Positions 6,513 to 30,560 are shown, numbered from the stretch's first letter. The stretch is DNA of 32,000 nt from Candidatus Methylomirabilis limnetica (GCF_003044035.1 NZ_NVQC01000017.1:183290-215289); one strand, 5' to 3'. Translations and numbers: made by a program. The notes: generated from the sequence alone by a model not told the origin.

Positions 6513-7696
6513 GCGCAGCGATGGATAACGGGGCGGGAAAGATGACAGGAGGGATCGTGGCGGCAGGAACGAAGGTCATCCCGCGTGAGACAGCAGTGAA
6601 TGCCGTGCCGATCTCACCACCGCGTCCCATGGTTATCCGGCTCGATCGGGTGAGCAAGCACTATGGGGACGACACGATCCCCGCGGTAGAGGAAATCTCC
6701 TTCTCCGTTGAGCGAGGAGAGATCCTGGTGTTGTTGGGACCGAGCGGCTGCGGAAAGACCACGACGCTACGCCTGATCGCCGGGTTTGAGGCCCCTGATA
6801 GCGGGCGGATCGAGATTGGTAGCCGAACGGTAGCCCACGACACGATCTTGCTGCCACCGGAGCAGCGAGGCGTGGGCATGGTCTTCCAAGACTATGCGCT
6901 CTTCCCGCACCTGACAGTCCTGGAGAACGTCGCATTTGGCCTACGCCGCTATAATGCGGAGCAACAACGGAGCCGAATCGCGGAGGCGTTGGACTTGGTA
7001 GGACTCTCAACCCTTCAGGGACGGTACCCGTATGAGCTCTCCGGCGGGCAGCAGCAACGGGTTGCTCTGGCGCGTGCGCTGGCCCCCGGCCCGCAGGTCG
7101 TCTTGTTGGATGAGCCGTTCAGTAACCTGGATGCCGATATGCGGACGCAGATACGGGAAGATGTCCACTCGATCCTCCGCCAAGCCGGGACTACCGCCAT
7201 TTTCGTGACCCATGACCAGGAGGAGGCGTTTGTCATCGCCGATCGTGTTGGGGTACTGAACCATGGGCGCCTGGAGCAGCTCGACCATCCGGAGGCGATC
7301 TACCATACGCCGGTCACCCGTTTTATCGCTCAGTTCGTCGGTTCGGCCGATTTCATCCCCGGCCTCGTCCAAGGCGAGAGAATCACCACGGAGCTGGGCA
7401 CGTTCCCGAACCAGCAGGGGCTTTCGGTAGGGCAGGCGGTGGAGCTGATGATCAGGCCAGACGATATCGACCTGATCCCCGATGAGGCGAGCGAGGCGAC
7501 CGTGATCACCAGGCAGTTCCGTGGCCCAGACAACCTCTATTGCGTGCGCCTGCCATCCGGCCAGAAGATTCACAGCAGCCAGGGTTCAACGAAGCTCATC
7601 GAGCCGGGGACCAGGGTCACCGTAAAAGCCAATCCGACCCATGTGGTCTGTTTCGATGTAACAACTCAGGTGGATAGGCTGAAGGCTGAAGGCTGA
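6509..7696 (+). CDS. ABC transporter ATP-binding protein (FbpC/FutC-like)
   Basis: Walker A GPSGCGKTT, Q-loop, signature LSGGQQQRVALARAL, Walker B VVLLDEPFSNLD, H-loop VTHDQ, and a C-terminal TOBE-like domain. The TTG at 6509 overlaps the permease stop; alternative ATG starts are at 6521 and 6629. The last 12 codons (VTTQVDRLKAEG*) are supplied by repeat E3. Confidence 0.9.
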   Translation: MSAAMDNGAGKMTGGIVAAGTKVIPRETAVNAVPISPPRPMVIRLDRVSKHYGDDTIPAVEEISFSVERGEILVLLGPSGCGKTTTLRLIAGFEAPDSGRIEIGSRTVAHDTILLPPEQRGVGMVFQDYALFPHLTVLENVAFGLRRYNAEQQRSRIAEALDLVGLSTLQGRYPYELSGGQQQRVALARALAPGPQVVLLDEPFSNLDADMRTQIREDVHSILRQAGTTAIFVTHDQEEAFVIADRVGVLNHGRLEQLDHPEAIYHTPVTRFIAQFVGSADFIPGLVQGERITTELGTFPNQQGLSVGQAVELMIRPDDIDLIPDEASEATVITRQFRGPDNLYCVRLPSGQKIHSSQGSTKLIEPGTRVTVKANPTHVVCFDVTTQVDRLKAEG

Positions 7697-7760
7697 AGGT
7701 TTTGATGGGTAACGCAGTGATCACACAAAACCGTGGACATGCGAGTTGGCTAATGAACGA
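7658..7760 (+). mobile_element. 5' half copy (E3) of the heptamer-TIR / four-helix-bundle element, with the right end missing
   Basis: Left arm 7658-7699 is gtaacaactcaggtggataggctgaaggctgaaggctgaagg. It is followed by gtgatcacacaaaaccgtggacatgcgagttggctaatgaa, homologous to the start of the E2 ORF. No matching right arm occurs downstream; the sequence runs into REP-like hairpins. Confidence 0.55.
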
Positions 7761-7801
7761 CCGCGCAGCAAGCTGCGGGGTATCGTCTTCTGTTCTGGCC
7801 C

Positions 7802-7889
7802 GTCATTCCGTGCTTGACACGGAATCCAGTCGGACCCTCTGGATACCGGCGCCTGCCCCGGACTCCGATCCGGGGTCCACCGGTATGAC
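7802..7889. repeat. REP-like palindromic element (gtcattcc...ggaat / ataccgg...ccggtatgac class)
   Basis: Hairpin 1 is cattccgtg-cttga-cacggaat (7804-7825). Hairpin 2 is nested: ataccgg...ccccgga-ctccga-tccgggg...ccggtat (7842-7886). Its translation gives the spurious WIPAPAP...GSTGMT peptide typical of this widespread repeat class. It is the same class as 30414-30505. Confidence 0.5.
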
Positions 7890-8000
7890 GAACTCGCGGC
7901 AAGCCGCGGGGTATCAACCCTTAACGAAATGAAGTCGCGATTTGAGGAGATAAACTGAAGACGAGCTTTTAACGGTTCCAAGATTTCACGGAATAAGAGA

Positions 8001-8049
8001 AGGCGACTCCACCGCTCCCTGCTTGCCGGCCGGCGCGGTGGAGTCGCCT
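8001..8049. terminator. Perfect 15-bp inverted repeat (stem-loop), a possible terminator/insulator between the iron ABC operon and apbE
   Basis: aggcgactccaccgc (8001-8015) and gcggtggagtcgcct (8035-8049) are exact reverse complements with a 19-nt loop. There is no clear U-tract on the plus strand; the minus strand has a weak T-rich tail. Confidence 0.35.
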
Positions 8050-8221
8050 GACGCCTCGGATGGCCATTGTGTCAAGCGACCCCATGGGGCCTTTCCACTT
8101 TTGGCCTTCCTGGCTTTGTGATTTTAGCAACCTCCTGAGGAGAAGTCTAGTTTCGTTTCACTTAGAAGACACAGGGGCAACCGTAAAATGGAGGGGAGAA
8201 ACTTGAGGGAGGGATTTCCTT

Positions 8222-9328
8222 ATGGCTGAACGCGATCTGCAGATCCTTGACGAGTTCGGCCTCCGCCGAAGACGCTTCCTCCTGGCGATCGCCGGAGGCT
8301 TTGTGGGGACGCTTTTCGGGTCCCTCTCACCCGGAAGAGCATGGGGCAGATCGAGGATGCAGACACTCACACTCGGCCGTCTACTGATGGGCACGGCCGT
8401 GGAGATCGAGGCAAATCATCCTGACCTCTCGATCGCCAGGGAGGCGATTGAGACCGGCCTGCAACGAATGGTGGACGTCGATCGTCTGATGAGTATCTTT
8501 CGGTCCGACAGTGAGATCGGTCTGGTGAACCGTCTGGCCGCCACACTCCCTGTCTCGGTCGGGGAGGAAACCTTCGGCGTACTGACGGAAGCTAAGGATA
8601 TCGCGCTGATGAGCGGTGGCGCCCTTGATGTCACCATCCACCCGTTGATGCAGCTCTGGCGCCGCGCGACGCAGCGAGGCCGCCTTCCATCATCGCGGGA
8701 GATTGAGGCAGCCCTCGGTCTGGTGGCCCATAGTGGCCTTTCCGTTGATCCCAACAACCGCAGCGTTCAACTACAACAGCCTGGGATGGGCATCGATCTG
8801 GGGGGCATCGCCAAGGGCTATGCCGTTGACGTCGCGGCGGAGGCTCTCGCGAAGCAAGGCGTTCACAGTGGTTTGGTCAATGCTGGGGGCGACCTCCGAG
8901 TTGTCGGCCGCAACCGGGATGGGGGTATCTGGAGGATCGGCCTGCGGCATCCTCTCGCGCCTTCGAGGCTGCTGCTCTCGGTTCTGGCCGAGGATGAGGC
9001 TGCGGCGACATCCGGAAATTACTTTCGCTACTTCACTGTCGGCGGGATGCGTTACGGCCACCTATTACACCCTCGAACCGGAACGCCAGCAGATAGCGCG
9101 CTGAGCGCGACCATCATCGCAAAGAGCGCCATGCGCGCCGACGGCCTGGCGACCGCCGCCATGATCCACGGGGCAGGCGCAATGGCGTTCATACAACGCG
9201 TGAGCGGGGTCGAAGGGATCGTGGTCAACCCCCTCGCTCGCCATCCAGGGAAGGTCTCGGTTCAAATTACGCCGGGACTTCGTGGCCGGGTGGAGCTTCT
9301 GGATCGCTCGGCAGAACTTGAACGTTGA
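8222..9328 (+). CDS. apbE: FAD:protein FMN transferase (ApbE family), Tat-exported
   Basis: 368 aa. It has a twin-arginine signal (GLRRRRFLLAIAGG) and the ApbE hallmarks DLGGIAKGYAVD, VNAGGDL, ATSGNY and HLLHPRTG. Confidence 0.85.
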   Translation: MAERDLQILDEFGLRRRRFLLAIAGGFVGTLFGSLSPGRAWGRSRMQTLTLGRLLMGTAVEIEANHPDLSIAREAIETGLQRMVDVDRLMSIFRSDSEIGLVNRLAATLPVSVGEETFGVLTEAKDIALMSGGALDVTIHPLMQLWRRATQRGRLPSSREIEAALGLVAHSGLSVDPNNRSVQLQQPGMGIDLGGIAKGYAVDVAAEALAKQGVHSGLVNAGGDLRVVGRNRDGGIWRIGLRHPLAPSRLLLSVLAEDEAAATSGNYFRYFTVGGMRYGHLLHPRTGTPADSALSATIIAKSAMRADGLATAAMIHGAGAMAFIQRVSGVEGIVVNPLARHPGKVSVQITPGLRGRVELLDRSAELER

Positions 9329-9372
9329 TCCACTGACCCAAACAGGCGTCGAGGAACCTAAAGGAGGAAGAC

Positions 9373-10818
9373 ATGAACATAAAACTGTTGCGATGTTTCA
9401 TGGCTGCATTGATGGTCTGGATGGTCTCGCCCAACATGGCGGTCGCGGCGGCCCCATTGGAGGATCTGGAGAGGCAACTCAAAGATCTTCAGACGCAGAT
9501 CGAACGGCTTAAGCAGGACAAGGTAGAACAGGATCGAAGGGTGCGCGAGATCGAAACCGCTCAGAAGGAAAGGGCTGCCAAGGAGGCCGAGGCTCAACAG
9601 GAGCAGGCGAAGCGGAGAGAAGAACAGGAGCGAAAGACCGTCATCCTCGGCGAAGAGATGGAGACGCTCAAGAGCAAGATCACCCTACCTGAAACGATCG
9701 AGTACAAGAGCCTCTACGGCCTGGGTCCGGCAGCCTCGAAGGTTTACCAGATGCCGAGAGGGCTGTCAATCGGCGGCTACGGCGAGGCCAACGCCAACTT
9801 CTTCGTCGGCGATAATGAGGGACCGGACAAGAAGAGAGATGTCGGCGACCTCGCGCGCTTCATCACCTATATTGGGTACAAGTTCTCGGACCGGATCATC
9901 TTGAACTCAGAGATCGAGTATGAGCATGCAACGACCAGCACAACCAAGTCCGCCTCCTCGGGCTCGGTCTCAGTAGAATTTCTCACCTTGGACTTCCTCC
10001 TGACTGAGCGGGCAAACATCAGGGCGGGACTACTCCTGATGCCGATGGGATTCATCAACGAGATGCACGAGCCCACAACCTACTTCGGCAACCTCCGCCC
10101 GGAGGTGGAGCGGCGGATTCTCCCGAGCACCTGGCGGGAGCTTGGGGTGGGGCTCCACGGCACGATCCTGCCGGGGCTGACCTACCGGACCTATGTCACA
10201 AACAGTCTGAACGCCAAGGGCTTTTCCAAGAGCGATATCCGGAGCTCCCGCCAGAACGGGAACCGAGCCCTGTTTGAAGACTTCGCCTGGACCACGCGCC
10301 TCGATTACACCCCGATGCCGGGCCTCCTGCTCGGAGGGTCGGTCTTCTGGGGCGATACCGGACAGGATCAACTGTTCGCCGGGAAAGAAATCGCTGCAAA
10401 CCTCAGGCTCTACGAGTTCCATGGCCAGTATCAGTATCGAGGGCTGCAACTACGCGCGCTGTTCGCCCAGGGGCACATCAGCGACGCCGATGTTCTGAGC
10501 ACTGAGCTAAAGACACCCATCAGCCGGCGTATCGTAGGGGGTTACGCGGAGGCCAGCTATGATATCCTGCCGCTGTTCTTCCCTGGGACCGACATGTCGC
10601 TGTCTCCGTTCTTCCGATTCGAGCGGCTCAATACCCAGGCTGATGTCCCATCCGGCTTCACCCCCGACAGATTACAGAACACCACAGTGATCAACACGGG
10701 CCTGAGCTTCAAACCGATCCCCAACGTGGTGCTCAAGCTCGACTACCGGAACATGGATGGGAAAGGGCCGGGCCAGATCGCCGACGAGCTCAACGTCGGC
10801 CTCGGCTTCATCTTTTAG
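9373..10818 (+). CDS. Outer-membrane beta-barrel porin-like protein with an N-terminal coiled coil
   Basis: 481 aa. It has a signal peptide (ALMVWMVSPNMAVAAAP) and a roughly 80-aa charged coiled coil (LEDLERQLKDLQTQIERLKQDK...). The remainder has alternating amphipathic beta-strand character and ends in the OMP signature ...LNVGLGFIF (terminal Phe). Confidence 0.65.
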   Translation: MNIKLLRCFMAALMVWMVSPNMAVAAAPLEDLERQLKDLQTQIERLKQDKVEQDRRVREIETAQKERAAKEAEAQQEQAKRREEQERKTVILGEEMETLKSKITLPETIEYKSLYGLGPAASKVYQMPRGLSIGGYGEANANFFVGDNEGPDKKRDVGDLARFITYIGYKFSDRIILNSEIEYEHATTSTTKSASSGSVSVEFLTLDFLLTERANIRAGLLLMPMGFINEMHEPTTYFGNLRPEVERRILPSTWRELGVGLHGTILPGLTYRTYVTNSLNAKGFSKSDIRSSRQNGNRALFEDFAWTTRLDYTPMPGLLLGGSVFWGDTGQDQLFAGKEIAANLRLYEFHGQYQYRGLQLRALFAQGHISDADVLSTELKTPISRRIVGGYAEASYDILPLFFPGTDMSLSPFFRFERLNTQADVPSGFTPDRLQNTTVINTGLSFKPIPNVVLKLDYRNMDGKGPGQIADELNVGLGFIF

Positions 10819-10930
10819 CCGAAGCCGGGCAATCCTGAGAGTTGGGTGAGGCGGGGGAACCGAAGAGTGACCAGTTGGTCGCCTCGCGCCCCCCTCACCC
10901 CATCCCTAACGCTGTCAAGGAGATAAGGTT

Positions 10931-11479
10931 ATGCGCACCCTGGCCGGCCTGACCTTACTGCTCGTCTTGCACCTCTGCGCACCCGTTGGCCTCCTCGCCA
11001 AGGTGTTTTACGCCAAGGACGAGGCCGTCAAGGCGGCGTTCCCAGAGGCTGACATCATCGAGAAGCAGACATTTTTTCTGACAAACGACCAGAAAAAGCA
11101 GATCGAGACCCTCGCACGCACGCCGCTAGATTCCAAGCTTGTGACGATGTACATCGGAAAACGAGGCCAGAAGCTACTCGGCTATGCAATGATTGACGTT
11201 CACACGGTACGGACCCTGCCGGAGGCTGCCATGGTTGTGCTCTCCCCGGAAGGGCGGGTGGCCTCCACACTAATTCTAGCCTTCTATGAGCCACTGGAAT
11301 ACCTCCCAAATGAACGCTGGCTCAAGCAGTTCGATCAGGCAAGGCTCACCCCGGACCTCCGGGTGGGAGGAAAGATCGCGGGGATCACCGGGGCGACCTT
11401 GACGGCTCGGGCTATGTCTGAGTCGGTCCGTAAGGTTCTGGCCCTCTACCAGGTCTTGATCGAAAAAGGAGGGCGCTGA
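10931..11479 (+). CDS. Secreted FMN-bind domain protein (predicted ApbE substrate)
   Basis: 182 aa with a signal peptide (LTLLLVLHLCAPVGLLA). The motif ITGATLTARAM fits the flavinylation motif (S/T)GA(T)-(S/T) of FMN_bind domains (NqrC/RnfG/NosR/PplA type). Confidence 0.7.
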   Translation: MRTLAGLTLLLVLHLCAPVGLLAKVFYAKDEAVKAAFPEADIIEKQTFFLTNDQKKQIETLARTPLDSKLVTMYIGKRGQKLLGYAMIDVHTVRTLPEAAMVVLSPEGRVASTLILAFYEPLEYLPNERWLKQFDQARLTPDLRVGGKIAGITGATLTARAMSESVRKVLALYQVLIEKGGR

Positions 11480-11979
11480 TGCGTTTCGTCGTCACGGGGG
11501 AGTGGACCCAGAATCGCCTCCTTCGTCTCATCATATTGTGGTTTCTCATCTACAGTGCAGGCCTTTGGCTGACCAACACATTACTCTTCTTGAATCAGAT
11601 GGGGCTTCGTTACGAGTCCGTCGTCGCCTTCTACCGGGGATCCGAGACGCAGTATTTGCTGCCACGCAGCTACAAGGTCTTGCTCGAGATCAGTCATTTC
11701 CATCTCCTGGCAATGGGCATCTTCATCTTGACGCTGAGTCACCTGGTGCTATTCGTGCCCCTTACGCCTCGAGTCAAGTACTGGCTGATCCACCTGACCT
11801 TCCTATCCGCGATTTCAGACGAGGCCGCGGGCTGGCTGACCCGATTCGTACATCCCCTCTTCGCCTATTACAAGATCGGGGCTTTTGTTCTCCTCCAGAC
11901 AACCATGGCAGTACTGATTATAGCTGTCCTACTCGCTGTGCGCCTGAAGGCGCGCAGTGCATACACAGAGGACGTTTGA
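11479..11979 (+). CDS. Small integral membrane protein (about 4 TM helices), function unknown
   Basis: 166 aa. Its ATG overlaps the preceding stop (TGATG). There are four hydrophobic segments with conserved-looking His residues in TM regions (EISHFHLLAMGIF, TLSHLVLF, WLIHLTFL). The overlapping +2 ORF 11502-12008 is Arg/Pro-rich and rejected. Confidence 0.55.
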   Translation: MRFVVTGEWTQNRLLRLIILWFLIYSAGLWLTNTLLFLNQMGLRYESVVAFYRGSETQYLLPRSYKVLLEISHFHLLAMGIFILTLSHLVLFVPLTPRVKYWLIHLTFLSAISDEAAGWLTRFVHPLFAYYKIGAFVLLQTTMAVLIIAVLLAVRLKARSAYTEDV

Positions 11980-12004
11980 AAAACTTGAGATCAGGAGGGA
12001 TATC

Positions 12005-13153
12005 ATGAACAACTCGCGACAATCGTTTACCTACTACCGGTTGGGTCAATACCAGGGATTGAAGGTTCTCTTACTGCTGTTCGTCACGATGCTGATTGGG
12101 TGTACATCCGCCATAGCTCAACAGACCCGCACCTATCGCATCGCGGCTATCGAGGTGGACTGGGATTACGCGCCGACCGGCATCAACCAGATCAGCGGGA
12201 ACGCGTTTGGAGAGAGCGAAAATGTCTTTGTTCAGAGCGGCAAACAGCGGATCGGCAAAGTGTACCGCAAGGCGGTCTACCGCGAGTACACCGATGCCGC
12301 CTTTACCGCCGCAAAAGCTGTCGCGCCGCAATGGGAGCATTTGGGTGCTCTGGGCCCCGTCATCCGCGGGGAGGTTGGTGATACCATCCAGGTTGTCTTC
12401 AAGAACATGACCAGCTTTCCCACTAGCATCCACCCGCATGGCGTCTCATATCTCAAGAACTCCGAGGGGGCTCCGTACAACGATGGGACCTCTGGGGCCG
12501 ACATGGCTGACGATGCTGTCCCCTCTGGCGGGACCCACACCTATATCTGGCAGGTTCCAGAACGGGCAGGCCCGGGCCCGATGGACGGAAGCTCCGTCCT
12601 CTGGATGTATCACGCCCACACCGATGAGCCGGCGGACACGAATACCGGCCTGGTCGGGCCGCTCATCGTCACACGCAAGGGAAACGCAAACCCTGACGGT
12701 TCCCCCAAAGACATCGACCGGGAGTTTGTCACGCTGTTCACCGTCTTTAATGAGAACGCCAGCCACTATCTGGAGCACAATGTCAACCACTTTACCGGCA
12801 AGCCTAAGAAAACGATGAAGAACCTGGATGATCCCGAGTTTCAGGAGAGTAACCTGATGCACTCCGTCAACGGCTACGTCTATGGCAACTTGCCTGGATT
12901 AACCATGCAGCAGGGCGAACGCGTGCGCTGGTACGTGCTGAGTATTGGAACTGAGGTCGATCTGCACACGCCGCACTGGCATGGCCAGACCGTCCTCTGG
13001 ATGGGGAGTCGCATGGACATGGTGGAGCTCCTCCCGGGGAGTATGAAGACGATCGACATGGCACCGGACAACCCGGGAACATGGTTGTATCACTGCCACG
13101 TGAACGATCACATCACCGCTGGGATGATGGCGCTCTTTACGGTCACTGAGTAG
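12005..13153 (+). CDS. Ceruloplasmin-like two-domain multicopper oxidase lipoprotein (putative ferroxidase)
   Basis: I place the start at ATG 12005, preceded by AGGAGGG. There is a lipobox LIGC. YRIAAIEVDWDYAP resembles the ceruloplasmin/hephaestin domain start. Copper ligand motifs are IHPHG, YHAHTD, HTPHWHG and YHCHVNDHITAGMM (HCH...H...M). Confidence 0.85.
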   Translation: MNNSRQSFTYYRLGQYQGLKVLLLLFVTMLIGCTSAIAQQTRTYRIAAIEVDWDYAPTGINQISGNAFGESENVFVQSGKQRIGKVYRKAVYREYTDAAFTAAKAVAPQWEHLGALGPVIRGEVGDTIQVVFKNMTSFPTSIHPHGVSYLKNSEGAPYNDGTSGADMADDAVPSGGTHTYIWQVPERAGPGPMDGSSVLWMYHAHTDEPADTNTGLVGPLIVTRKGNANPDGSPKDIDREFVTLFTVFNENASHYLEHNVNHFTGKPKKTMKNLDDPEFQESNLMHSVNGYVYGNLPGLTMQQGERVRWYVLSIGTEVDLHTPHWHGQTVLWMGSRMDMVELLPGSMKTIDMAPDNPGTWLYHCHVNDHITAGMMALFTVTE

Positions 13154-13308
13154 CCAGAACGCTTTGGAATGACAGGGATAAAGGTTTATGAAAATGTCAG
13201 GAGAAAGACAAATTGTCCAGGTCAAGGCCTCATGGGCGGAGTTTTGCAAAACACACCTCACACGCCTGGTCGAAGAATAGATTATAACGTTCCCCAAAAA
13301 CTAGTGTA

Positions 13309-14145
13309 ATGGAGATACCGATGGCCGCGAAACGATCGACGCAATCAACGGATTTGCCGGGCAGCGAGTTGGATCCGGCGAAAATGCCGGGTCACTGGCT
13401 CCTTGCCCGACTTGGCAAGCGCGTCTTGCGCCCCGGAGGTCTCGGTCTAACGCGAGCGCTGCTCGATAGCTTGGCGATCGGACCGGACGACGACGTAGTC
13501 GAGTTCGCACCCGGCCTGGGCGTGACGGCGCGTATGATCCTGGAGCGGAAGCCTCGGCGCTATGTGGGCGTCGAGCGGGACGCAAAGGCAATGCAGTGGA
13601 CGGCCCGACAACTCCCCCGCAGCCCGAATGTATCAGTTATCGTCGGCGCCGCAGATCAAACGAATCAACCTGACGGCTCGGCATCGGTCGTCATCGGCGA
13701 GGCCATGTTGAGCATGCACACCCAGGAGCGAAAGCGCCTGATCGCGGCGGAAGCGTTCCGGCTCCTGCGTCCTGGGGGCCGCTACGGCATTCATGAGCTC
13801 GCTGTTGTTCCCGACGATATGCCGGCCGACCAAAAGCAGGAGATCGACGGTATGTTGTCGTCGGTGATCCATGTTGGCACCCGCTCCTTGCCAGAACACG
13901 AGTGGAGGGCCCTGTTGGAGGGAGTCGGATTCCGCGTCGTAGCGTCCGGATACGCGCCGATGCACCTGCTGAGGCCGCGGCGCCTAGTCCAGGATGAGGG
14001 GGTATTCGGAGCGCTGAGGCTCGCGAAGAACCTCCTACTCGATGGCGCGGCGCGGCGACGGGTAGTCGCGATGCGACGGGTGTTCGAGCATTATCGTAAC
14101 AACCTGAGCGCGATCTTCCTCATCGCGCAGAAGGGTCTGGATTGA
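13309..14145 (+). CDS. Class I SAM-dependent methyltransferase
   Basis: 278 aa. Motif I is VVEFAPGLGVTA (E/DxGxGxG-like), with an acidic post-I residue (GVERD) and motif II/III-like LRPGGRYGIHEL. The start may be the ATG at 13321. Confidence 0.75.
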   Translation: MEIPMAAKRSTQSTDLPGSELDPAKMPGHWLLARLGKRVLRPGGLGLTRALLDSLAIGPDDDVVEFAPGLGVTARMILERKPRRYVGVERDAKAMQWTARQLPRSPNVSVIVGAADQTNQPDGSASVVIGEAMLSMHTQERKRLIAAEAFRLLRPGGRYGIHELAVVPDDMPADQKQEIDGMLSSVIHVGTRSLPEHEWRALLEGVGFRVVASGYAPMHLLRPRRLVQDEGVFGALRLAKNLLLDGAARRRVVAMRRVFEHYRNNLSAIFLIAQKGLD

Positions 14146-14403
14146 ACCGGCCTAGTAGCTCTGTTGTGCGCATGGGTGGTTGGGGTATGGCGCGTTGATA
14201 CTCCGCCCGCTGTATGAGATGTGGGGAAAAGGCTGGGAGCACCGATCTCCTCGGTCCTCACGAGCCCTATGCCCATGAGATCCCGACCCCACTAGTCATT
14301 CGGGAGGATGTAAAGTTAGAGTACGGTGAGCGCCGTCCCACCGTTGGATGGGCTACGCTATCGAGATGTCAGGAGAGAGCTATCCGTTGACGGGTTGGCG
14401 TGA

Positions 14404-14748
14404 TCACATCAGGTCCCCGAGCGGCCCGAGCGACAGGTTGAGGTCGTCCTCGGCGAGGCCGAAGTGTGCCCGGAGTTCCACCATCTTCTCCTCCAGCCGG
14501 ATGAAGGTCACCCCCATCCGCTCGATCTCCTCGGAGGTGAGGGAGCCCCCCTCCATCCTTCGAAGGGCCTGACGCTCGAGAAGCTTTCTGAGGAGTTCGA
14601 TGAGGGTGAGCACGAGCTTGGCCAGCCCCTGCTCGACCTTCTCAGGGTCGGCGTTGATCCGTCTCGGCAGGGCCTGGGTGAGCTGCTCCAGCTCCCCCTC
14701 AAACTCCGCCAGAGAGCTCTCAGGCGCCGAGAGTGTCTTTGGTTTCAT
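14404..14748 (-). CDS. gvpK: Gas vesicle protein GvpK
   Basis: RINADPEKVEQGLAKLVLTLIELLRKLLERQALRRMEGGSLTSEEIERMGVTFIRLEEKMVELRAHFGL..DDLNLSLGPLGDLM is the conserved GvpK core. I chose the start at the internal Met (MKPKT, 14748), giving a 29-nt overlap with the upstream gvpF/L gene. The ORF track extends to 14844. Confidence 0.85.
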   Translation of the reverse strand: MKPKTLSAPESSLAEFEGELEQLTQALPRRINADPEKVEQGLAKLVLTLIELLRKLLERQALRRMEGGSLTSEEIERMGVTFIRLEEKMVELRAHFGLAEDDLNLSLGPLGDLM

Positions 14749-15448
14749 CGTGGGCTCCGTTGACGAAGTGGTAGGGAGGCCAGGGGCCGGTGAGGAGGAA
14801 GCTAAGGCGGGGAAACTCTTCCCGGATCTTTGCCACGCCTTCACGGAAGGCGTCCACTCGATCCCGCTCCACCAGATAGGCCCCGGTGAGAAGCAGCCGC
14901 TCTGTGGGGAACCGCTGGAGCCGGCTTTCCCCAGCCAGGGAGGGGAAAGAGGCCTGGAGCTCCTGAATCAACCGCTCCCCCGCCGCTCGAAACCTAGCCC
15001 GATGCCGCTCCTCCGTAAGCCTCCTGTGGAGGTATTCCGTTCCAGGGCCTTCATCGCTAGTCTTTTGATCCACCGCCGTGGCGGAGTCACCAGGCGGTTC
15101 CCAGAGCACCCTGAGCCCCAGCTCCACCTTTCCTGTCACCCGCTCCAGCGCAGAGCGGAATGGCCGAGCGCGTTCGTTGAGGAGCGCGATCGCAGCATCC
15201 TCAGTTCTGAAGAGCGTGTTGAAGCGGGCGGGAAGGACAGGGCGGGAGATCATCACCTCCTCTAGCACCGTCTCGTGGAGGGTCAGGTGGTCTTCGTCGA
15301 CGGGCCATAGGGTGAGCGGCGACCGGCTGACCACAGCGGCTAGGTCCCCCTGCGGAACAAGGAAGACGGGACGCCTCCCGAGCCCAACGATCTGCTGTAA
15401 CAGCGGCGGGGGGAAGGCGACGATCCCGTAAAGGTAGATCCCCTCCAT
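14720..15448 (-). CDS. GvpL/GvpF-family gas vesicle protein (paralogue 5)
   Basis: 242 aa. It has the N-terminal YLYGIV, the VLPARFNT motif, KVELGLRVLW and the C-terminal LTGPWPPYHFV, all hallmarks of GvpL/GvpF. Confidence 0.85.
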   Translation of the reverse strand: MEGIYLYGIVAFPPPLLQQIVGLGRRPVFLVPQGDLAAVVSRSPLTLWPVDEDHLTLHETVLEEVMISRPVLPARFNTLFRTEDAAIALLNERARPFRSALERVTGKVELGLRVLWEPPGDSATAVDQKTSDEGPGTEYLHRRLTEERHRARFRAAGERLIQELQASFPSLAGESRLQRFPTERLLLTGAYLVERDRVDAFREGVAKIREEFPRLSFLLTGPWPPYHFVNGAHDETKDTLGA

Positions 15449-15451
15449 GGC

Positions 15452-15661
15452 TCACTCCTCGACGCTCTTAACACCCCATTCCCTAGCCGTTTCCACAGAG
15501 CAGAGGAGGAGCCGGAGACCAACATAGATGAGGTCCACATCGGCTACGGATAGGGTCACATCCCCCGCTACCACGACGCCCTTGTTGAGGAGGCGGTCCA
15601 GCGTCTCGAGGAGCGTGACCTGCCGTTCCAGGCTGGAAGCAGGCCGGCCGTTATCCTTCAT
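15452..15661 (-). CDS. Short GvpA-family paralogue (GvpM/GvpS-like)
   Basis: The core is TLLETLDRLLNKGVVVAGDVTLSVADVDLIYVGLRLLLCSVETA, the GvpA/J/M alpha-beta-beta-alpha core. I set the start at Met 15661 (69 aa), just overlapping the upstream gene end. The ORF track extends to 15733. Confidence 0.75.
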   Translation of the reverse strand: MKDNGRPASSLERQVTLLETLDRLLNKGVVVAGDVTLSVADVDLIYVGLRLLLCSVETAREWGVKSVEE

Positions 15662-16454
15662 CGTCAAGCCTCGGGACAAAGTGGTATGGTGGCCAGGGGC
15701 CCGAGACAACGAGCCTGAAGGCTTCTTCGGCATGGCTCTGGTTCCACTGCTCCACCCCGGAGAGGAGGTCCTCCACTCCCTCCCGCCTCACGAGACAGGC
15801 CAGATTAAGCACGATCCTCTCCCCCTCTCTGGCCTCGGGGAGGATGGAAGGATACTCCACCAGCTCCACCACTTTCCCCCGGAGGGCCTCCAGCGCCTGA
15901 CTGGCAAGCGCATCTTCACGCTCCTGGGATTTCGTCGAGGCGCTCTCCTCGATTTTTCTCTTGAGGAAGAATGCCAGCCCGGGCGGTTTAGTGCTTGCCT
16001 CGCGGGCCAAGGCAAGGAGCGCCGCATCGTTCTTGAGCACGGCGGCTCGAAGGGCCGTCCGGTCCGCGAACCCCTTCACGCCCCACTCGACCTTATCTCT
16101 CAGGAACTCCAGGGCCTCTTGGATGCGCCGAGTATTCCTCCGAATGACCGACCGGATCGTCCCCGCGTCAAGGAAGATAGTGCCAAACCTCATCGGGAGA
16201 AGCGGACCCGTGGCCAGAGCCGACTCCACGATCGACTCGTGAAGGCGCACTTTCTCCTCCAGCCAAGAGGGGTCCTCCAGGTTGCGGCGGAGAGCCTCCT
16301 CCCCGAACTCGGTCAGGGGGACCGGGCTGGACAGTGCCACGATCCCGTTCTCGGCGATGAGGCTCAAAGGAGAGTGCCCGTCGATTCCCATCATTGGCGG
16401 CAGGTCTCCGTGGGGGGAAAAAGCATAGAGGTACCAGCCAATCTCGGAAGGCAT
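15651..16454 (-). CDS. GvpL/GvpF-family gas vesicle protein (paralogue 4)
   Basis: WYLYAF..., LLPMRFGTIF, KVEWGVKGF and the C-terminal VSGPWPPYHFV. The start at 16454 forms an ATGA overlap with the upstream stop. The ORF track extends to 16475. Confidence 0.85.
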   Translation of the reverse strand: MPSEIGWYLYAFSPHGDLPPMMGIDGHSPLSLIAENGIVALSSPVPLTEFGEEALRRNLEDPSWLEEKVRLHESIVESALATGPLLPMRFGTIFLDAGTIRSVIRRNTRRIQEALEFLRDKVEWGVKGFADRTALRAAVLKNDAALLALAREASTKPPGLAFFLKRKIEESASTKSQEREDALASQALEALRGKVVELVEYPSILPEAREGERIVLNLACLVRREGVEDLLSGVEQWNQSHAEEAFRLVVSGPWPPYHFVPRLDDEG

Positions 16455-17068
16455 CAGCGCTCCTTTGCGTCCCACAGTGGGAGCCGATCGATGAGAAACT
16501 CCACCTGGATTCCCTCTGGCAGGAGCCGATCCACTTCGTGCATCATCCCCAGGAAGAGGAGAGCCACTTCACCCTCCTCCAGGGTCTCGGCAATCCGCTG
16601 GGCGATGAAGGTGTCCCGCGCCTTCAGGATCTCCGCGCTCTCAGCAGCGTAGCTCCGCTTGGCCTCTTCCCGCTCGGCGTCTGTCTGGGCCTCGGTGATC
16701 TGCTTAACGTGGGCGTACTCTCGAAGTAAGAGCTCTGGTGACTCGGTCCCAATCAGCTTCGCCCCCTTGTCAACCAGCTCAAGGACGATCTGGTAGTTCT
16801 TACTCCCCTGGGCTGCCACACCCCGCGCAATCTCCAGCTCTTTCCCCGAGACGGGCAGGCCGTCCTGATAGATCCTGACCCGCTCCCACGGGAGATTCCT
16901 GATCAGGAGCTTCGCCCTGATCCCCTCCCAGACATCATCAATGACCCGTCGGCTCCGCTCCCAGCTTTCGACCCCGAATCGTCTGATGGACTCCTGCCGG
17001 AGCGCCTCCGACTTGGACCCCATATCCGCCATGGTGTGAATGATGGGGACGTAGATGAGCCGCCTCAT
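16454..17068 (-). CDS. Conserved-looking hypothetical protein embedded in the gvp operon (no family recognised)
   Basis: 204 aa from MRRLIYVPIIHTMADMGS..., starting 4 nt after the CheY stop (translational coupling). It has no TM segments or signal peptide. There is a weak, unverified resemblance to the TraB/GumN/ChaN fold (N-terminal IHT, C-terminal LLFLGMMHEVDRLLPEG). Confidence 0.55.
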   Translation of the reverse strand: MRRLIYVPIIHTMADMGSKSEALRQESIRRFGVESWERSRRVIDDVWEGIRAKLLIRNLPWERVRIYQDGLPVSGKELEIARGVAAQGSKNYQIVLELVDKGAKLIGTESPELLLREYAHVKQITEAQTDAEREEAKRSYAAESAEILKARDTFIAQRIAETLEEGEVALLFLGMMHEVDRLLPEGIQVEFLIDRLPLWDAKER

Positions 17069-17072
17069 CGCG

Positions 17073-20540
<3,468 letters not shown>

Positions 20541-20544
<4 letters not shown>

Positions 20545-21056
20545 GCGCTCTTGCCGGCCTTAGCGACAGTGACCTCCAGGATGCCGTTCCGGTAGGAGGT
20601 CTTCAGCGATTCCTGCTTTCCCTTGGCAGGGAGGAGAATCTCTTTGCTGTACTTCCGGTCCTTGCCCTCGGCGGAGATGGTGAGAATGTCATCTTTCAGC
20701 TCTACCCGGACGTCACCGGTATCCACTCCGGGCATCTCGGCAATCACTCGGATGGCCTCGTTCTCATCGAAGACGTCTACCAGCGGCTCCCGCACCTCCT
20801 CGACCACGGCCCCCGCTTCGCCCTTCTTGATGTTGCCGAAGGTCTCGACGGTGGGTTCGCCCCCCAGGCCGACCTTGACGTTGAAGCCGTACACTCCTCT
20901 CAGATCTTTAAGCCGCCCTTTCCCCCTGAGCTCCCCCGTGCGAGTCGTCTCGGTCTTCCCCTCCGCCTCCATCTCCTTGAGGAGCTCGATGAGGTCGCCA
21001 ATTCCCTTGAAGAGGTCGCCGAGGCCGAATCCCGCTCCACCTTTTCGCTCTGTCAT
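20541..21056 (-). CDS. Hsp20/alpha-crystallin-family small heat-shock protein (GvpH-like position)
   Basis: The alpha-crystallin domain reads VIAEMPGVDTGDVRVELKDDILTISAEGKDRKYSKEILLPA...YRNGILEVTV. I set the start at Met 21056 (MTERKGG), preceded by GGGAGGAAG. The ORF track extends to 21104 and would overlap gvpJ. Confidence 0.85.
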
Positions 21057-21072
21057 ATCTTCCTCCCATGCC

Positions 21073-21366
21073 TTACCCGCCGAGGCGGGCCTCAAGTCGG
21101 TCAAGCCGCTCCTTGAGTTGATGGTTCTCCTCTTCCAGGACCCTGGCCTTCGAGGAGAGGGCGGGGTCGCTCTGCCACCAGTCGATTCCCATCTCCTTGG
21201 CCTTCTCCACCGAGGCGACCAGGAGCCGGATCTTGATGGTCAACAACTCGACGTCGGCGAGGCAGATCTTGATGTCGCCGGCGATGACGATCCCCTTGTC
21301 GAGGACCCGTTCCAGGATGTCAGCCAGGCTGGTGGTCTGGATGCTGTGGGGGATGTTCTGTGGCAT
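21073..21366 (-). CDS. gvpJ: Gas vesicle protein GvpJ (GvpA-family paralogue with a C-terminal coiled-coil extension)
   Basis: SLADILERVLDKGIVIAGDIKICLADVELLTIKIRLLVASVEKAKEMGIDWW is the GvpA/J core with the GvpJ-typical GIDWW. The tail is charged and helical (LEEENHQLKERLDRLEARL). Confidence 0.85.
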   Translation of the reverse strand: MPQNIPHSIQTTSLADILERVLDKGIVIAGDIKICLADVELLTIKIRLLVASVEKAKEMGIDWWQSDPALSSKARVLEEENHQLKERLDRLEARLGG

Positions 21367-21375
21367 GTCGTCCCC

Positions 21376-21570
21376 CTACCGTCCCACTCTGGCCGGCTCG
21401 ACCCTCGCCCCGCAGGACGGACAGAACTTGTAGTCATCCTTGTAGATGTACCGCCACGTTCCCCCGCACTCGGGGCATCGCCGTGTTAACGGCTCCCCGC
21501 ACTTCGTGCAATGCTTGAGCGCCCCCCACGTCGTCTCCCCACACCCCGGACACTTGAATGACCCTACCAT
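21376..21570 (-). CDS. Double zinc-ribbon protein
   Basis: 64 aa from MVGSFK, with four CxxC pairs: CPGC...CTKC...CPEC...CPSC. I set the start at Met 21570, 5 nt after the gvpG stop. The ORF track extends to 21603. Confidence 0.6.
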   Translation of the reverse strand: MVGSFKCPGCGETTWGALKHCTKCGEPLTRRCPECGGTWRYIYKDDYKFCPSCGARVEPARVGR

Positions 21571-21574
21571 AGCG

Positions 21575-21907
21575 TTACACCTCCCCTTCATGCGGGGGCC
21601 CACCGCTGCCAGTCACGGCATCGCCCCCACCGGTCTCCGCAGGGCCTGGCACCGCCTCACCTCCCGCCAACTCCACCTCTTCGTCGGCCTGCCGGACGGC
21701 ATTGAGCCTCGCCTCCCATTCCGCTGCTTGCACAGTGTACTCCGCCTCGCCGATCTCGTCCATCTCGTAGAGGAGTTGGAGTTCCAGGAGCTTTTCCTGG
21801 ATGTACCCCTCATCGTTCTGCTCCCGGTCGGCCATCTCGTGGATCTTCTCGAAGACGCCGATGAGGCCCTTGAAGGGGAGCGCGATGAGATCGTCAATGA
21901 GGAGCAT
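21575..21907 (-). CDS. gvpG: Gas vesicle protein GvpG
   Basis: MLLIDDLIALPFKGLIGVFEKIHEMADRE...IQEKLLELQLLYEMDEIGEAEY matches the conserved GvpG N-terminus and the EL...E.GEI..EEY motif. AGGAGAGG SD. Confidence 0.8.
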   Translation of the reverse strand: MLLIDDLIALPFKGLIGVFEKIHEMADREQNDEGYIQEKLLELQLLYEMDEIGEAEYTVQAAEWEARLNAVRQADEEVELAGGEAVPGPAETGGGDAVTGSGGPPHEGEV

Positions 21908-21918
21908 GAATTCCTCTC

Positions 21919-22662
21919 CTAGACCTGAATGACCAGGTTCACGAAGTTGAAGGGGGGGAACCCCCCCACATACTTGAACCTGACCATCTCCCGATACCGC
22001 TCAGCCAGCTCGTCCATTCTCCGATCAAAGGCCGCCTCCTGGTCCCGGTCTATCAGGAAGGCCGCATTCATGATCATCCGCTCCCCCAGGAGCCGATTGG
22101 TCAGGCGGAAGTCGTGACAGGCCCCCTTCAGCGCCTCCACGATCTCCTCCCGGACTCTATCCTTCTCGACCTTAAGGGCCGCCTCCACCATCCTCCCAAC
22201 CTCGACAAGCTGCCAGTGGGCCTGCTGGGGAGGCAGTTTGGCGATGGCCTCTTTCCGCCTCCGGATCTCCCCGTATCGCTCGAGAATCTCTTGGTATATG
22301 AGCGTTTCGTTGAAGATCGCCTTCACCCCCACCTCCACCTTTCCGCGCATCCGCTCCAGGAGGCCCCTGAACTCGACATACTCCCGCTCCAGGATGGCCC
22401 GCACCCTCGCTTCGTTCTCGGCAATAGTGCAGAATCGGGCGGGCAGGACAGTATGGCATTTGAAGACGGCCTCAATGGCCCGCTCGTGAACCAGCGAGTT
22501 CTCCCGAGAGACGGGATAGCGCATGACGGGGGAGTCGCTCACGATGGCTGCAATGTCGCGATACGCGATGGCGGTCAACTCATCATCCCGGCCGCCGATT
22601 CCTAAAAGGCCGAAGCTCTCCTCTCGAGCCTCATCCGTGACGCAATAGATGTACTTTCCCAT
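21919..22662 (-). CDS. GvpL/GvpF-family gas vesicle protein (paralogue 3)
   Basis: From MGKYIYCV...: VLPARFCTI, KVEVGVKAIF and the C-terminal YVGGFPPFNFV. I set the start at Met 22662. The ORF track extends to 22713, overlapping the upstream gene. Confidence 0.85.
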   Translation of the reverse strand: MGKYIYCVTDEAREESFGLLGIGGRDDELTAIAYRDIAAIVSDSPVMRYPVSRENSLVHERAIEAVFKCHTVLPARFCTIAENEARVRAILEREYVEFRGLLERMRGKVEVGVKAIFNETLIYQEILERYGEIRRRKEAIAKLPPQQAHWQLVEVGRMVEAALKVEKDRVREEIVEALKGACHDFRLTNRLLGERMIMNAAFLIDRDQEAAFDRRMDELAERYREMVRFKYVGGFPPFNFVNLVIQV

Positions 22663-22681
22663 AGAGGAAATCCCTTCTGAG

Positions 22682-23434
22682 TCACTCGTCAGGGTGGAGG
22701 ATGATGTTGACAAAGTTGTAAGGGGGGACTGGCCCCACGTAGGCGAACTTCACGCGTTCCCGGTATCGAAGGGACAGCCGCTCCATCTGGTCGTCGAACT
22801 CCTTCTCCCTGGCCCGATCCACCAGGAATGCAGCGTTGAGGAACATCCTGTCGCCGACGGTCGCGTTGAGACGGTGCTCCGCAGCCAGACGCCTCAATAC
22901 CCAGAGGATCTGCTCTCCCTCCCCCTCCTTCTTCGCCTCCAGGGCGGCCTGGACCATCTTGCCGATGGCGATCCGCTGAGGATGGGTCTGACGGGACGGC
23001 TGCCTGGCGATCTCCGCCTTCAGATGCTTAATCGCCTCGTTCTCATCCACGATCTCCTGGAAGAGGAGATCCATCTCCCGCCAGAAGGCCTTCACCCCCA
23101 GCTCCACCTTCCCGTCCAGGTCTCGCAGGAGATGTTTCAGTTCCTGGTACCGCCGCTCCAGGAGCTGCCGGATCTCCTCAGCGTTCTGGGCGACAGTGCA
23201 GTATCTGACCGGGAGGACAGTATGCTCGTTCATGACTCGCTCCAGTACCCGCTCATGGGCCAGGAGGTTCGCCTTGCTGACCTCATACTTGCGCAAGGGT
23301 GCAGTACTCATGACCGCGCTGAGATCCCGGTAGGCGATGGTCTCGACCTCCCGGCCGCCCAGGCCGATGGGGCCGAAGTTCCTTTCCTCGTTGGTCCCGA
23401 TGATCGCATACAGGTACTTCCCCTCCTCACGCAC
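22682..23434 (-). CDS. GvpL/GvpF-family gas vesicle protein (paralogue 2)
   Basis: GKYLYAIIG, VLPVRYCTV, KVELGVKAFW and YVGPVPPYNFV. The GTG start overlaps the upstream stop by 8 nt. Confidence 0.85.
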   Translation of the reverse strand: MREEGKYLYAIIGTNEERNFGPIGLGGREVETIAYRDLSAVMSTAPLRKYEVSKANLLAHERVLERVMNEHTVLPVRYCTVAQNAEEIRQLLERRYQELKHLLRDLDGKVELGVKAFWREMDLLFQEIVDENEAIKHLKAEIARQPSRQTHPQRIAIGKMVQAALEAKKEGEGEQILWVLRRLAAEHRLNATVGDRMFLNAAFLVDRAREKEFDDQMERLSLRYRERVKFAYVGPVPPYNFVNIILHPDE

Positions 23435-24877: not shown

Positions 24878-24906
24878 GATACCCTATCCCCTCCCCAGTG
24901 ATCTCA

Positions 24907-25227: not shown

Positions 25228-25240
25228 GGCTGCCTCCCGA

Positions 25241-25408: not shown

Positions 25409-25423
25409 CAGAGCCACCTCCCC

Positions 25424-26344: not shown

Positions 26345-26353
26345 GGATACCTC

Positions 26354-27287: not shown

Positions 27288-27297
27288 CTCTTCCCTC

Positions 27298-27792: not shown

Positions 27793-27928
27793 GTTCCCCT
27801 CCCAGGGCGTTAACACGCCCCACGTGTCCTCAGGTTGGACTAGAGGGAGATCCTGGCGAGGCATACTCTCTGCGGTTGTCCGCTCAAGGATGCCCCGGCA
27901 GACACCCCTCACTGGTTCCAGGCCGACC

Positions 27929-30505: not shown

Positions 30506-30560
30506 AAAACGCCCGAGACTTATGTCGTGATATTAGCAAGGAGGAGTGGAGAGTCTGGGG

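Follow-up and report, generated by a model that had tools for sequence, protein, structure and literature searches.

A predicted flavinylated envelope redox module, most likely iron-linked, and its accessory ceruloplasmin-like oxidase in Candidatus Methylomirabilis limnetica

What do five closely packed genes for exported and membrane proteins, lying next to an iron importer, accomplish in the envelope of a methanotroph? The question is raised by a 32,000-nucleotide (nt) stretch of the Candidatus Methylomirabilis limnetica genome (phylum NC10; GCF_003044035.1, NZ_NVQC01000017.1:183290–215289), hereafter the window, in which positions 8,222 to 13,153 encode, in this order, an ApbE-family enzyme, an outer-membrane porin, a flavoprotein of the flavin mononucleotide (FMN)-binding type, an inner-membrane protein with four transmembrane (TM) helices (the 4-TM protein) and a multicopper oxidase (Table 1). 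An earlier interpretation of this DNA, made without database searches and here called the sequence-only reading, had joined the five genes into one envelope redox module for iron or copper. Inspection of the sequence together with Pfam searches recovered all five open reading frames (ORFs) on the + strand, co-directional and separated by only 44, 112, −1 and 25 nt in the order apbE, porin, flavoprotein, 4-TM protein and oxidase; the observation is thus confirmed, and the interpretation placed upon it is supported in part. The locus most likely encodes an ApbE-flavinylated, iron-linked envelope redox system with a membrane partner that has not been catalogued among such systems, and the unit that is conserved is a core of porin, flavoprotein and 4-TM protein, accompanied by ApbE on one side or the other.

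Conservation was assessed by a scan of genomes, one per species, with the 4-TM alignment as query, which identified relatives in 372 genomes. Unless metagenomic or other loci are named, the locus counts given below refer to the loci of the best 80 of these 372 genomes, annotated with phmmer, with iron genes recognized by means of a limited query set. In 72 of 78 loci the flavoprotein and 4-TM genes are directly adjacent, at a spacing of −13 to +19 nt; the commonest value is −1, the same one-base overlap that is seen in the window. A porin gene lies 5′ of the flavoprotein gene in 61 of the 70 eligible loci, and apbE belongs to the cluster in 46 of the 58 loci with enough flanking sequence (15 upstream, 31 downstream), while the loci from Methylococcales have no local ApbE. 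Carriers of the core include Methylomirabilota, Rokubacteria, Entotheonella, Binatia, Myxococcota, other 'Deltaproteobacteria' and Methylococcales. The proposal that the five genes form a single conserved unit is therefore not upheld, since what relatives share is the set of porin, FMN_bind protein and 4-TM protein, with or without ApbE, and the oxidase is not included; when five-gene synteny was examined among relatives, four genes retained it and the oxidase did not.

The flavoprotein scores 20.1 bits against Pfam FMN_bind (PF04205), just under the 22-bit cut-off, and many of its homologues at 60–80% identity are assigned to that family. A profile built from 41 homologues matches RnfG of the solved Rnf complex (9eri_G) over its full length (E = 7e-11) and aligns the motif ITGATLT (I152-T-G-A-T156-L-T) onto ITGSTIT of RnfG, with T156, G154 and L157 invariant among the 41 homologues. 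Together with an N-terminal signal peptide that is recognizable in the sequence, these results bear out the claim of a secreted FMN_bind protein, for which the predicted flavinylation site is Thr156 (codon 11396–11398). The upstream enzyme matches Pfam ApbE at 258.1 bits (cut-off 25.6; E = 1.3e-76; residues 56–331), is named FAD:protein FMN transferase by NCBI, and opens with a twin-arginine leader, GLRRRRFLLAIAGG, whose RRRRF motif was read directly off the sequence; the leader RRRRFLLAIAGG...AWG is, on inspection, consistent with an extracytosolic location. The identification of an ApbE with a twin-arginine translocation (Tat) signal accordingly stands. ApbE is predicted to be the maturation enzyme for the neighbouring flavoprotein, and the presence of the motif and the invariance of its target Thr argue for the proposed logic of ApbE acting on an FMN_bind substrate.

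The start codon of the 4-TM gene shares one base with the TGA of the flavoprotein gene, an overlap that suggests a stoichiometric complex of the two products. The window product and all 120 homologues listed carry a precomputed Pfam assignment to PF27139 (Aq_1264_TM), a family that comprises at least 4189 clusters at 90% identity, all of them annotated as 'hypothetical'. An AlphaFold2 model with a mean predicted local distance difference test score (pLDDT) of 79 places the TM helices at residues 13–41, 65–90, 97–123 and 128–156. The four helices and the overlapping ATG are thus as first described; the label 'His-rich' was an overstatement for a protein with 5 His in 166 residues. An alignment of 68 sequences shows no variation at E70, H73, H75, H88, E115 and R122 and at least 90% conservation of H125, and in the model the conserved His and Glu fall in TM helices. 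Both termini are predicted to be cytoplasmic by the positive-inside rule, on which basis E70, H73, H75, E115, R122 and H125 would lie close to the periplasmic side of the membrane and H88 close to the cytoplasmic one.

Comparison of the 4-TM protein with a local Pfam copy (older than PF27139) and NCBIfam returned nothing usable at E ≤ 10, and at that threshold there was no Pfam match to the NapH-like, MsrQ-like, PepSY-like, DsbD, NQR/RNF-like or DUF4405 families. The PDB includes solved FoxB, Nqr and Rnf complexes (Huang et al. 2024, PMC10979944); against it, a profile search found no match and Foldseek found nothing below E = 1, the hits to haem A synthase and cytochrome b (E = 4–5) being meaningless. 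We propose the 4-TM protein as the membrane redox partner of the flavoprotein and as a candidate electron carrier. A flavinylated redox unit at the inner membrane is indicated by the translationally coupled flavoprotein and 4-TM genes, by the invariant Thr and by the presence of apbE in the same cluster.

Pfam assigns the porin to no family, and searches of Pfam and NCBIfam yielded no usable match at thresholds up to E ≤ 10. With 60 homologues as input, AlphaFold2 gave a model (pLDDT 79) that comprises a signal peptide, a single helix of ∼74 residues (30–103) and 16 β-strands, and Foldseek matches it to OmpC, OmpF, OmpK36 and OprP with probability 1.00, E ∼1e-13 and TM-scores of ∼0.66–0.70 on the target; the model and these matches agree with the original description of an outer-membrane barrel with a coiled-coil neck. 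The protein terminates in an aromatic end (...GLGFIF). A minority of its homologues are assigned to PF07642 (BBP2) or PF07396 (Porin_O_P), the window porin itself being unassigned, and invariant Glu/His/Arg clusters include EIEYEH and NEMHEP. A complex resembling the porin-cytochrome type was dismissed, as a 16-strand barrel is too narrow.

The link to iron rests on the neighbourhood of the core. At least one recognizable iron gene is present in 31 of the 80 loci, where ferritin-like genes (16 loci), Fur (12), Peptidase_M75 (10), the di-haem protein DHOR (9) and FTR1 (7) recur, with P19, DtxR or an iron ATP-binding cassette (ABC) importer in a few. The loci of three distant flavoprotein homologues likewise contain porin, flavoprotein, 4-TM protein and ApbE, lack the oxidase, and have iron genes adjacent, namely Peptidase_M75 with a di-haem protein in one, ferritin with FTR1 and P19 in another, and DtxR with an iron ABC importer and P19 in the third. 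In the window, the core follows fur and an importer of the FbpABC/HitABC type, comprising binding protein, permease and ATPase, whose binding protein matches solved ferric-binding proteins (FbpA/HitA) at E = 4e-40 to 1e-27. Fur-box-like 19-mers (14/19 matches) occur at 2959–2983, just 5′ of fur, and a further Fur-box-like site lies at 3494–3518 before the binding-protein gene, with a 15/19 match at 3500–3518. The ORF of the binding protein is called from 3461, and a signal-peptide-like stretch opens at Met32; given these two features, the 15/19 site and Met32, translation probably starts at 3554 with the Fur operator ahead of it. The same ABC set lies 5′ of the module in L010, L012, L094, L096 and L097. 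Both the placement of the module beside an iron importer and its wider connection with iron, as the sequence-only reading had them, are therefore sustained by the adjacent Fur and FbpA-type genes and by the 31 loci. The recurrence of iron neighbours, and the several types of importer that the module accompanies, fit a general role in iron conditioning, and the four-gene module is most likely an assimilatory iron redox system.

Two further features of related loci were recorded. A conserved gene of 96–120 amino acids (aa) without a Pfam match lies 3′ of the module in 12 of the 80 loci (for example L094, 10238–10600; L012, 9745–10107; L007, 10301–10591) and is often followed by a divergently oriented ferritin-like gene; this gene, P19, FTR1 and ferritin-like genes were looked for in the window and are absent from it. 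In Ca. Methylobacter favarea (L070), a gene for GTP cyclohydrolase II, the first step of riboflavin synthesis, is found at 3963–4577 (−), ∼1.3 kb upstream of a porin–flavoprotein–4-TM module that has no ApbE nearby.

The fifth gene of the window encodes a protein of quite different affinities. Its start is most likely the ATG at 12005 rather than the listed GTG at 11957, given an AGGAGG site and agreement with NCBI (WP_107561991.1), and its lipobox (LIGC) and Cu-oxidase_3 and Cu-oxidase_2 domains bear out the claim of a lipobox-bearing multicopper oxidase. Aligned end to end with each of the three repeats of human ceruloplasmin (4enz), the protein scores 274–298 bits; ceruloplasmins are by far its best matches among solved structures, the bacterial small laccases (SLAC) reaching ∼65 bits over the N-domain only. 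The copper motifs HxHG, HxH, HxxHxH and HCHxxxHxxxxM are all present (H143-P-H145-G, H203-A-H205, H321-TP-H324-W-H326 and H363-C364-H365...H369...M374), which supplies all ligands of the type-1 (T1) and trinuclear copper sites. Residues E317 (GTEVD), E281 (FQESN), H286 (LMHSV) and D368 (HCHVNDH) align with the Fe(II) sites of human ceruloplasmin, which we take to be E272/E935/H940/D1025 and E597/H602/D684/E971. The ceruloplasmin type that had been suggested is thus upheld by the per-repeat scores and by the retention of both copper ligands and Fe(II)-site residues. A nitrite-reductase-like enzyme was rejected in view of the full trinuclear cluster and HCH motif, the NirK profile scoring only 26 bits.

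By its sequence, the oxidase appears to be one ceruloplasmin A-domain unit with both halves of the trinuclear site, and this arrangement, with T1 in the second domain, would imply a trimer, the state of other two-domain oxidases. It is probably a ferroxidase. A homologue search covering 1.84 billion representative proteins returned many three-repeat proteins (∼1,050–1,200 aa) at 40–49% identity and ∼20 single-unit proteins (370–640 aa) at 48–61% identity, one cluster of which includes a protein from Frankiales. Metagenomes contain at least 580 relatives of the oxidase; the samples are mainly of soil type, and the genes for the most part have no iron context. The protein looks like the two-domain form proposed as the ancestor of ceruloplasmin; literature searches found no paper describing a single-unit prokaryotic relative of ceruloplasmin.

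The oxidase occurs in only 3 of the 80 module loci and, in the genome scan, in L012 alone plus fragments in Methylobacter and Methylomicrobium. It lies 3′ of the 4-TM gene in M. limnetica, L012 and L096. In M. lanthanidiphila the orthologue (78% identical) sits before apbE, with an iron ABC importer upstream and ferritin, ExbB and hemP downstream, and in L097 it stands together with Fur, the ABC importer and the porin, the flavin genes being displaced and divergent. The oxidase is thus a lineage-specific accessory that joins the core module only in relatives of Methylomirabilis, with the gene order shuffled among them. Although L012 (DATMXF010000201.1) is labelled 'Patescibacteria group bacterium', its iron island is of the Methylomirabilis type, with the same gene order and a 4-TM protein 86% identical to that of the window; the contig is probably mis-binned.

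A second association is found in Methylobacter and Methylomicrobium, where the oxidase accompanies the 4-TM gene without a flavoprotein; the order in Methylobacter is ceruloplasmin-like oxidase, ferritin-like gene, FTR1–Rieske fusion and 4-TM gene. The fusion (L014, 6947–7987, Methylobacter sp.; also L015 and L016) is an FTR1 with a C-terminal Rieske [2Fe-2S] domain (CPH...CPCH), and it is followed directly by the 4-TM gene; the upstream oxidase of L014 is split by a DDE transposase (insertion sequence element). The Rieske domain is probably cytoplasmic, as judged from the 7-TM topology and an RDRRLMRWR linker. That the oxidase family is generally linked to iron was dismissed, since 78 of 80 metagenomic loci are unrelated contexts; the case for iron in the oxidase consequently rests on Methylomirabilis and Methylobacter only.

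How, then, might these parts work together? A reading to which we would give an even chance is that the locus is a periplasmic iron redox module, in which a flavin-based ferric reductase and, in this organism, a ferroxidase feed the adjacent Fe(III) importer. The OmpF/OprP-like porin, with its periplasmic helical neck, would admit small iron species; the periplasmic RnfG-like protein would bear FMN covalently at Thr156, attached by the co-encoded, Tat-exported ApbE; and the 4-TM protein, through a putative cofactor, would link the flavin to a membrane or cytoplasmic electron pool. Reduced flavin would then give one electron to chelated or colloidal Fe(III), acting as an assimilatory ferric reductase that serves whichever importer adjoins it (FbpA-type ABC, FTR1/P19 or imelysin/di-haem). 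We favour this direction of electron flow because reduced flavins readily reduce Fe(III) chelates, whereas thermodynamics disfavours low-potential FMN as an oxidant of Fe(II). In Methylomirabilis a further layer would be added, in which the lipoprotein oxidase re-oxidizes the released Fe(II) to Fe(III) with O2 and the FbpA-type binding protein encoded next door takes it up. Fet3/Ftr1 and ceruloplasmin couple Fe(II) oxidation to the hand-off of Fe(III), and a ferroxidase would be sensible as such a step here because the importer of the window is FbpA-type and binds Fe(III).

Several observations weigh against this proposal. About 60% of the examined loci have no iron gene recognizable by the limited query set, and in two of them, L028 and L070, Pfam inspection found unrelated neighbours. 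L011, a Methylomirabilota locus whose 4-TM protein is 90% identical to that of the window, lacks the oxidase and contains P19. Of the 80 metagenomic proteins most closely related to the oxidase, 78 are encoded beside neither iron nor flavin genes, the recurrent neighbours being a TPR/OmpR-type regulator and unknown small proteins, and the Frankiales homologue adjoins a two-component system. The 525-nt gap before apbE contains no Fur-box-like site of at least 13/19, so any iron regulation of the operon is putative. For the 4-TM protein, neither solved structures nor known cytochrome families provided a detectable relative, and its His pattern, three by one face and one by the other, misfits a classical di-haem bundle in a monomer. 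Finally, the adjacent reductase and oxidase could equally be alternatives for different redox conditions instead of a relay.

A more ambitious form of the proposal, which we consider doubtful, would make the core a seventh class of flavinylation-based trans-envelope redox system, with a four-helix carrier built around a novel cofactor site and a porin coiled coil that docks the outer-membrane channel onto the inner-membrane redox unit. It would provide TonB-independent reductive iron uptake in hundreds of environmental lineages, completed in methanotrophs by a single-unit prokaryotic ceruloplasmin, and so amount to a bacterial counterpart of Fre/Fet3/Ftr1 and a living two-domain ancestor of ceruloplasmin.

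Among the alternatives, the one that survives best, though we judge it unlikely, is that the 4-TM protein carries no electrons and is instead an exporter of FAD or riboflavin for ApbE, a mover of Fe(II) or an anchor for the flavoprotein, the flavin being reduced by a soluble periplasmic donor. The protein is indeed unlike any known cytochrome or iron-sulphur membrane protein, its conserved Glu/His clusters would also suit metal transport, and to our knowledge the route by which FAD reaches periplasmic ApbE is generally unclear. Four helices are few for a permease, however, and the one-base overlap with the flavoprotein gene suggests a stoichiometric complex. The Methylobacter 4-TM gene, which stands beside FTR1–Rieske with no ApbE or flavoprotein nearby, also misfits a flavin exporter; with the flavoprotein absent and a Rieske domain on the adjacent FTR1, the arrangement suggests redox partnering rather than flavin export.

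Less probable still is a reversal of the electron flow, whether as an electron sink for oxidase-dependent Fe(II) uptake, like FtrD of FtrABCD, or as respiration, with electrons exported to extracellular Fe(III) or humics as by FmnB/PplA of Listeria. Many of the adjoining importers (FTR1/P19, imelysin with a di-haem protein, multicopper oxidase) are thought to oxidize Fe(II) and would need an electron outlet, and flavinylated proteins are known mediators of extracellular electron transfer, a general precedent for the respiratory variant. The sink would, however, have low-potential FMN accept electrons from Fe(II), against the thermodynamic gradient. For respiration, neither the window nor the related loci offer a multi-haem or multi-flavin wire or Ndh2/EetAB/Dmk genes, and a 16-strand porin offers no room for a redox protein; the presence of Fur and ferritin-like genes alongside the module speaks for assimilation.

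That the system handles copper instead of iron is, in our estimation, improbable to a somewhat greater degree. The oxidase would be a CueO-like cuprous oxidase, and the His/Glu-rich 4-TM protein and the porin would handle copper for a methanotroph dependent on particulate methane monooxygenase (pMMO). Ceruloplasmin and CueO both oxidize Cu(I), which makes such an activity plausible on general grounds; P19 proteins bind copper besides iron; both lineages that join the oxidase to the 4-TM gene (NC10 and Methylococcales) are methanotrophs; and the two-component pair beside the Frankiales oxidase is of the OmpR type, common for copper-responsive systems. Against this, the core module occurs for the most part in bacteria other than methanotrophs, and the genes that recur as neighbours are specific to iron (Fur, FbpA, FTR1, ferritin-like, hemP). 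Copper-specific genes (CopA/B/C/D, CusCFBA, CueR, CsoR or MopE/methanobactin) did not appear in the window or in any locus sampled. On the Cu(I) role named by the sequence-only reading, the evidence decides neither way.

NosR, which has an FMN_bind domain flavinylated by the ApbE-family protein NosX, supports the copper enzyme NosZ. With this general precedent, and with flavin genes and oxidase that are adjacent, co-directional and 25 nt apart in the window and occur together in several Methylomirabilis arrangements, one might suppose that the flavoprotein feeds the oxidase (membrane pool to 4-TM protein to FMN to type-1 copper to O2), as a small periplasmic oxidase branch or a scavenger of oxygen or peroxide, but this is the least probable of the alternatives, since the oxidase is missing from nearly all module instances (present in 3 of 80), so that the module must have another acceptor, since the complete ceruloplasmin Fe(II) site has been kept, needlessly if the donor were a protein, and since L097 has its oxidase still beside porin and ABC genes but its flavin genes in a displaced position and divergent orientation.

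The preferred reading, an iron redox module with ferric reductase and accessory ferroxidase, can be placed beside several known systems. The membrane classes recognized in uncharacterized flavinylation systems are NapH-like, MsrQ-like, PepSY-like, DsbD and NQR/RNF-like, and P19-linked FMN_bind genes have also been described (Meheust et al. 2021, PMC8238504); DUF4405 cytochromes were added subsequently (Huang et al. 2024, PMC10979944). With the flavinylated iron-assimilation systems among these (PepSY-like/DUF2271, MsrQ-like, P19-associated FMN_bind and DUF4405) the module shares the combination of ApbE, an exported substrate and a small membrane protein, and it resembles them in frequently adjoining Fur-regulated or iron-transporter genes and in its proposed role, periplasmic iron reduction (PMC8238504, PMC10979944). 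It differs from them in that its membrane partner is PF27139, outside the six described classes, and in that a porin belongs to the core. Porins, multicopper oxidases and the PF27139 family are unmentioned in the two flavinylation surveys (PMC8238504, PMC10979944), literature searches for aq_1264 and PF27139 returned no papers, and searches for the gene combination in Methylomirabilis or iron papers found nothing relevant. The statement that the combination is not a named system thus holds, as none matching it was found in the flavinylation literature examined. A supplementary table (PMC8238504, supplementary file 1) includes an Emcibacter cluster (NVVY01000001.1_100-103) in which ApbE and an OprO/P-like porin occur with an FMN_bind protein of 184 aa and a K09939 protein of 210 aa; the cluster is filed under 'OrganohalideReductase' solely on account of a PceA-like gene at a distance of three genes. 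This cluster may represent the same module in a version with another membrane partner; related clusters have therefore been captured before, yet without comment.

The closest functional parallel would be Fre1/Fet3/Ftr1 of yeast, which likewise unites a flavin-dependent membrane reductase, a multicopper ferroxidase and an Fe(III) importer, a set that is deduced here from the genes. The reductase here would be split into a covalent-FMN protein and a 4-TM protein instead of a single flavocytochrome b558, the oxidase is a two-domain ceruloplasmin-type protein as opposed to the three-domain Fet3, and the importer of the window is ABC; in Methylobacter the partner is a true FTR1, as in yeast. Set beside vertebrate ceruloplasmin/hephaestin, the oxidase has identical copper-ligand motifs and the four Fe(II)-site residues, but it is one 382-aa repeat with a lipobox, not six domains. 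With SLAC it has in common two cupredoxin domains and a T1 site in the second, although ceruloplasmin is by far the nearer of the two. The bacterial relatives in a 2013 phylogeny of six-domain copper proteins were all remote and had six domains.

The flavoprotein resembles RnfG/NqrC in its full-length similarity to RnfG and its motif for Thr-linked FMN, but RnfA–E and NqrA–F are not nearby in the window or the related loci, and there is a single 4-TM partner. The proposed system resembles FtrABCD of Bordetella and Brucella, P19–FTR1 and cyanobacterial porin/FutA2 reductive uptake in treating iron by redox chemistry in the periplasm and in the coupling of this step to a permease or FbpA-type binding protein, and P19 and FTR1 adjoin the module in several loci; those systems differ in employing a cupredoxin and polyferredoxin or a respiratory oxidase, and have no flavinylated protein paired with Aq_1264_TM. 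The analogy to Listeria FmnB/PplA drawn by the sequence-only reading holds for the principle that an ApbE-family enzyme flavinylates an exported FMN_bind protein. It fails in that the substrate here is RnfG-like and not a PplA lipoprotein, the envelope is Gram-negative with a porin, the iron context is assimilatory, and no Ndh2, EetA/EetB, DmkA/DmkB or PplA-type lipoprotein was found among the Pfam-annotated genes of the window and related loci.

Coordinates of the features discussed are collected in Table 1. The 525-nt gap between the ABC operon and apbE contains two copies of a 28-nt direct repeat (2 matches vs. 0 expected), each with a short palindrome that shows a compensatory change between the copies, GCAGCAAGCTGC vs. 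GCGGCAAGCCGC; it could represent either a repeat element or an operator. Across the interval that separates the porin gene from the flavoprotein gene, the region 10816–10935 folds at −49.7 kcal/mol (z = −2.7; 1 of 200 shuffles was equally stable), and a second strong GC-rich hairpin with 18-nt arms lies at 8001–8049, 3′ of the ABC operon. The latter may be a terminator and the stem-loop at 10844–10900 may serve differential expression inside the operon. An Rfam scan of the whole window matched no family, and a promoter/terminator scan of 7600–13400 remained at or under shuffle expectation. Minus-strand ORFs overlapping the cluster (e.g. 10030–10449 and 12446–12862) were rejected as unsupported and antisense to well-supported genes.

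Table 1. Features of the window, with positions counted from its first nucleotide.
Feature	Position	Strand	Basis
fur	2991–3464	+	Pfam FUR, E=1.1e-35
Fe(III) ABC importer, FbpABC/HitABC-type	3461–7696	+	Pfam; FbpA/HitA matches
Fe(III)-binding protein	ORF 3461–4588, probable start 3554	+	Pfam SBP_bac_6
Fused double permease	4875–6512	+	Pfam BPD_transp_1
Importer ATPase	6509–7696	+	Pfam ABC_tran and TOBE_2
28-nt direct repeat, two copies	7757–7784, 7888–7915		2 matches vs. 0 expected; 525-nt gap before apbE
ApbE, FAD:protein FMN transferase	8222–9328	+	Pfam ApbE (PF02424)
16-strand outer-membrane porin, 481 aa	9373–10818	+	AlphaFold2 and Foldseek
GC-rich stem-loop	10844–10900	+	Between porin and flavoprotein genes
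Exported RnfG/NqrC-like FMN-binding protein, 182 aa	10931–11479	+	Family profile vs. RnfG
Four-helix inner-membrane protein, 166 aa	11479–11979	+	PF27139 (Aq_1264_TM)
Two-domain lipoprotein multicopper oxidase, 382 aa	12005–13153	+	Pfam Cu-oxidase_3 and Cu-oxidase_2, above cut-offs

Outside the cluster, a BrnT toxin/CopG-type antitoxin pair (2258–2844, −) lies just upstream of fur. The oxidase gene is followed by a methyltransferase gene and then by a minus-strand gas-vesicle cluster (∼14400–27900) with several GvpL/F genes, GvpA-type genes, GvpK and GvpG, as well as a CDC48-type AAA ATPase, HSP20 and an ArsA/ParA-like ATPase, after which a PAS histidine kinase and a sigma-54 response regulator are encoded at 28573–31952.

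Flavinylation by ApbE is now recognized as one of the main ways in which bacteria move electrons beyond the cytoplasm, and a catalogue of its membrane partners exists. The locus points to a partner family missing from that catalogue, which comprises more than 4,000 sequence clusters, as well as to a porin dedicated to the system. The carriers of the core are environmental groups that are difficult genetically. If the core is a ferric reductase, it would explain how such organisms acquire iron without obvious siderophore systems, and would give PF27139 a testable function. The oxidase, a small prokaryotic protein related to ceruloplasmin whose Fe(II) site is intact, would be useful for tracing the evolution of ferroxidases and for simple structural work. 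In the nitrite-dependent methanotrophs themselves, an oxidase acting as proposed would tie iron uptake to internally generated oxygen.

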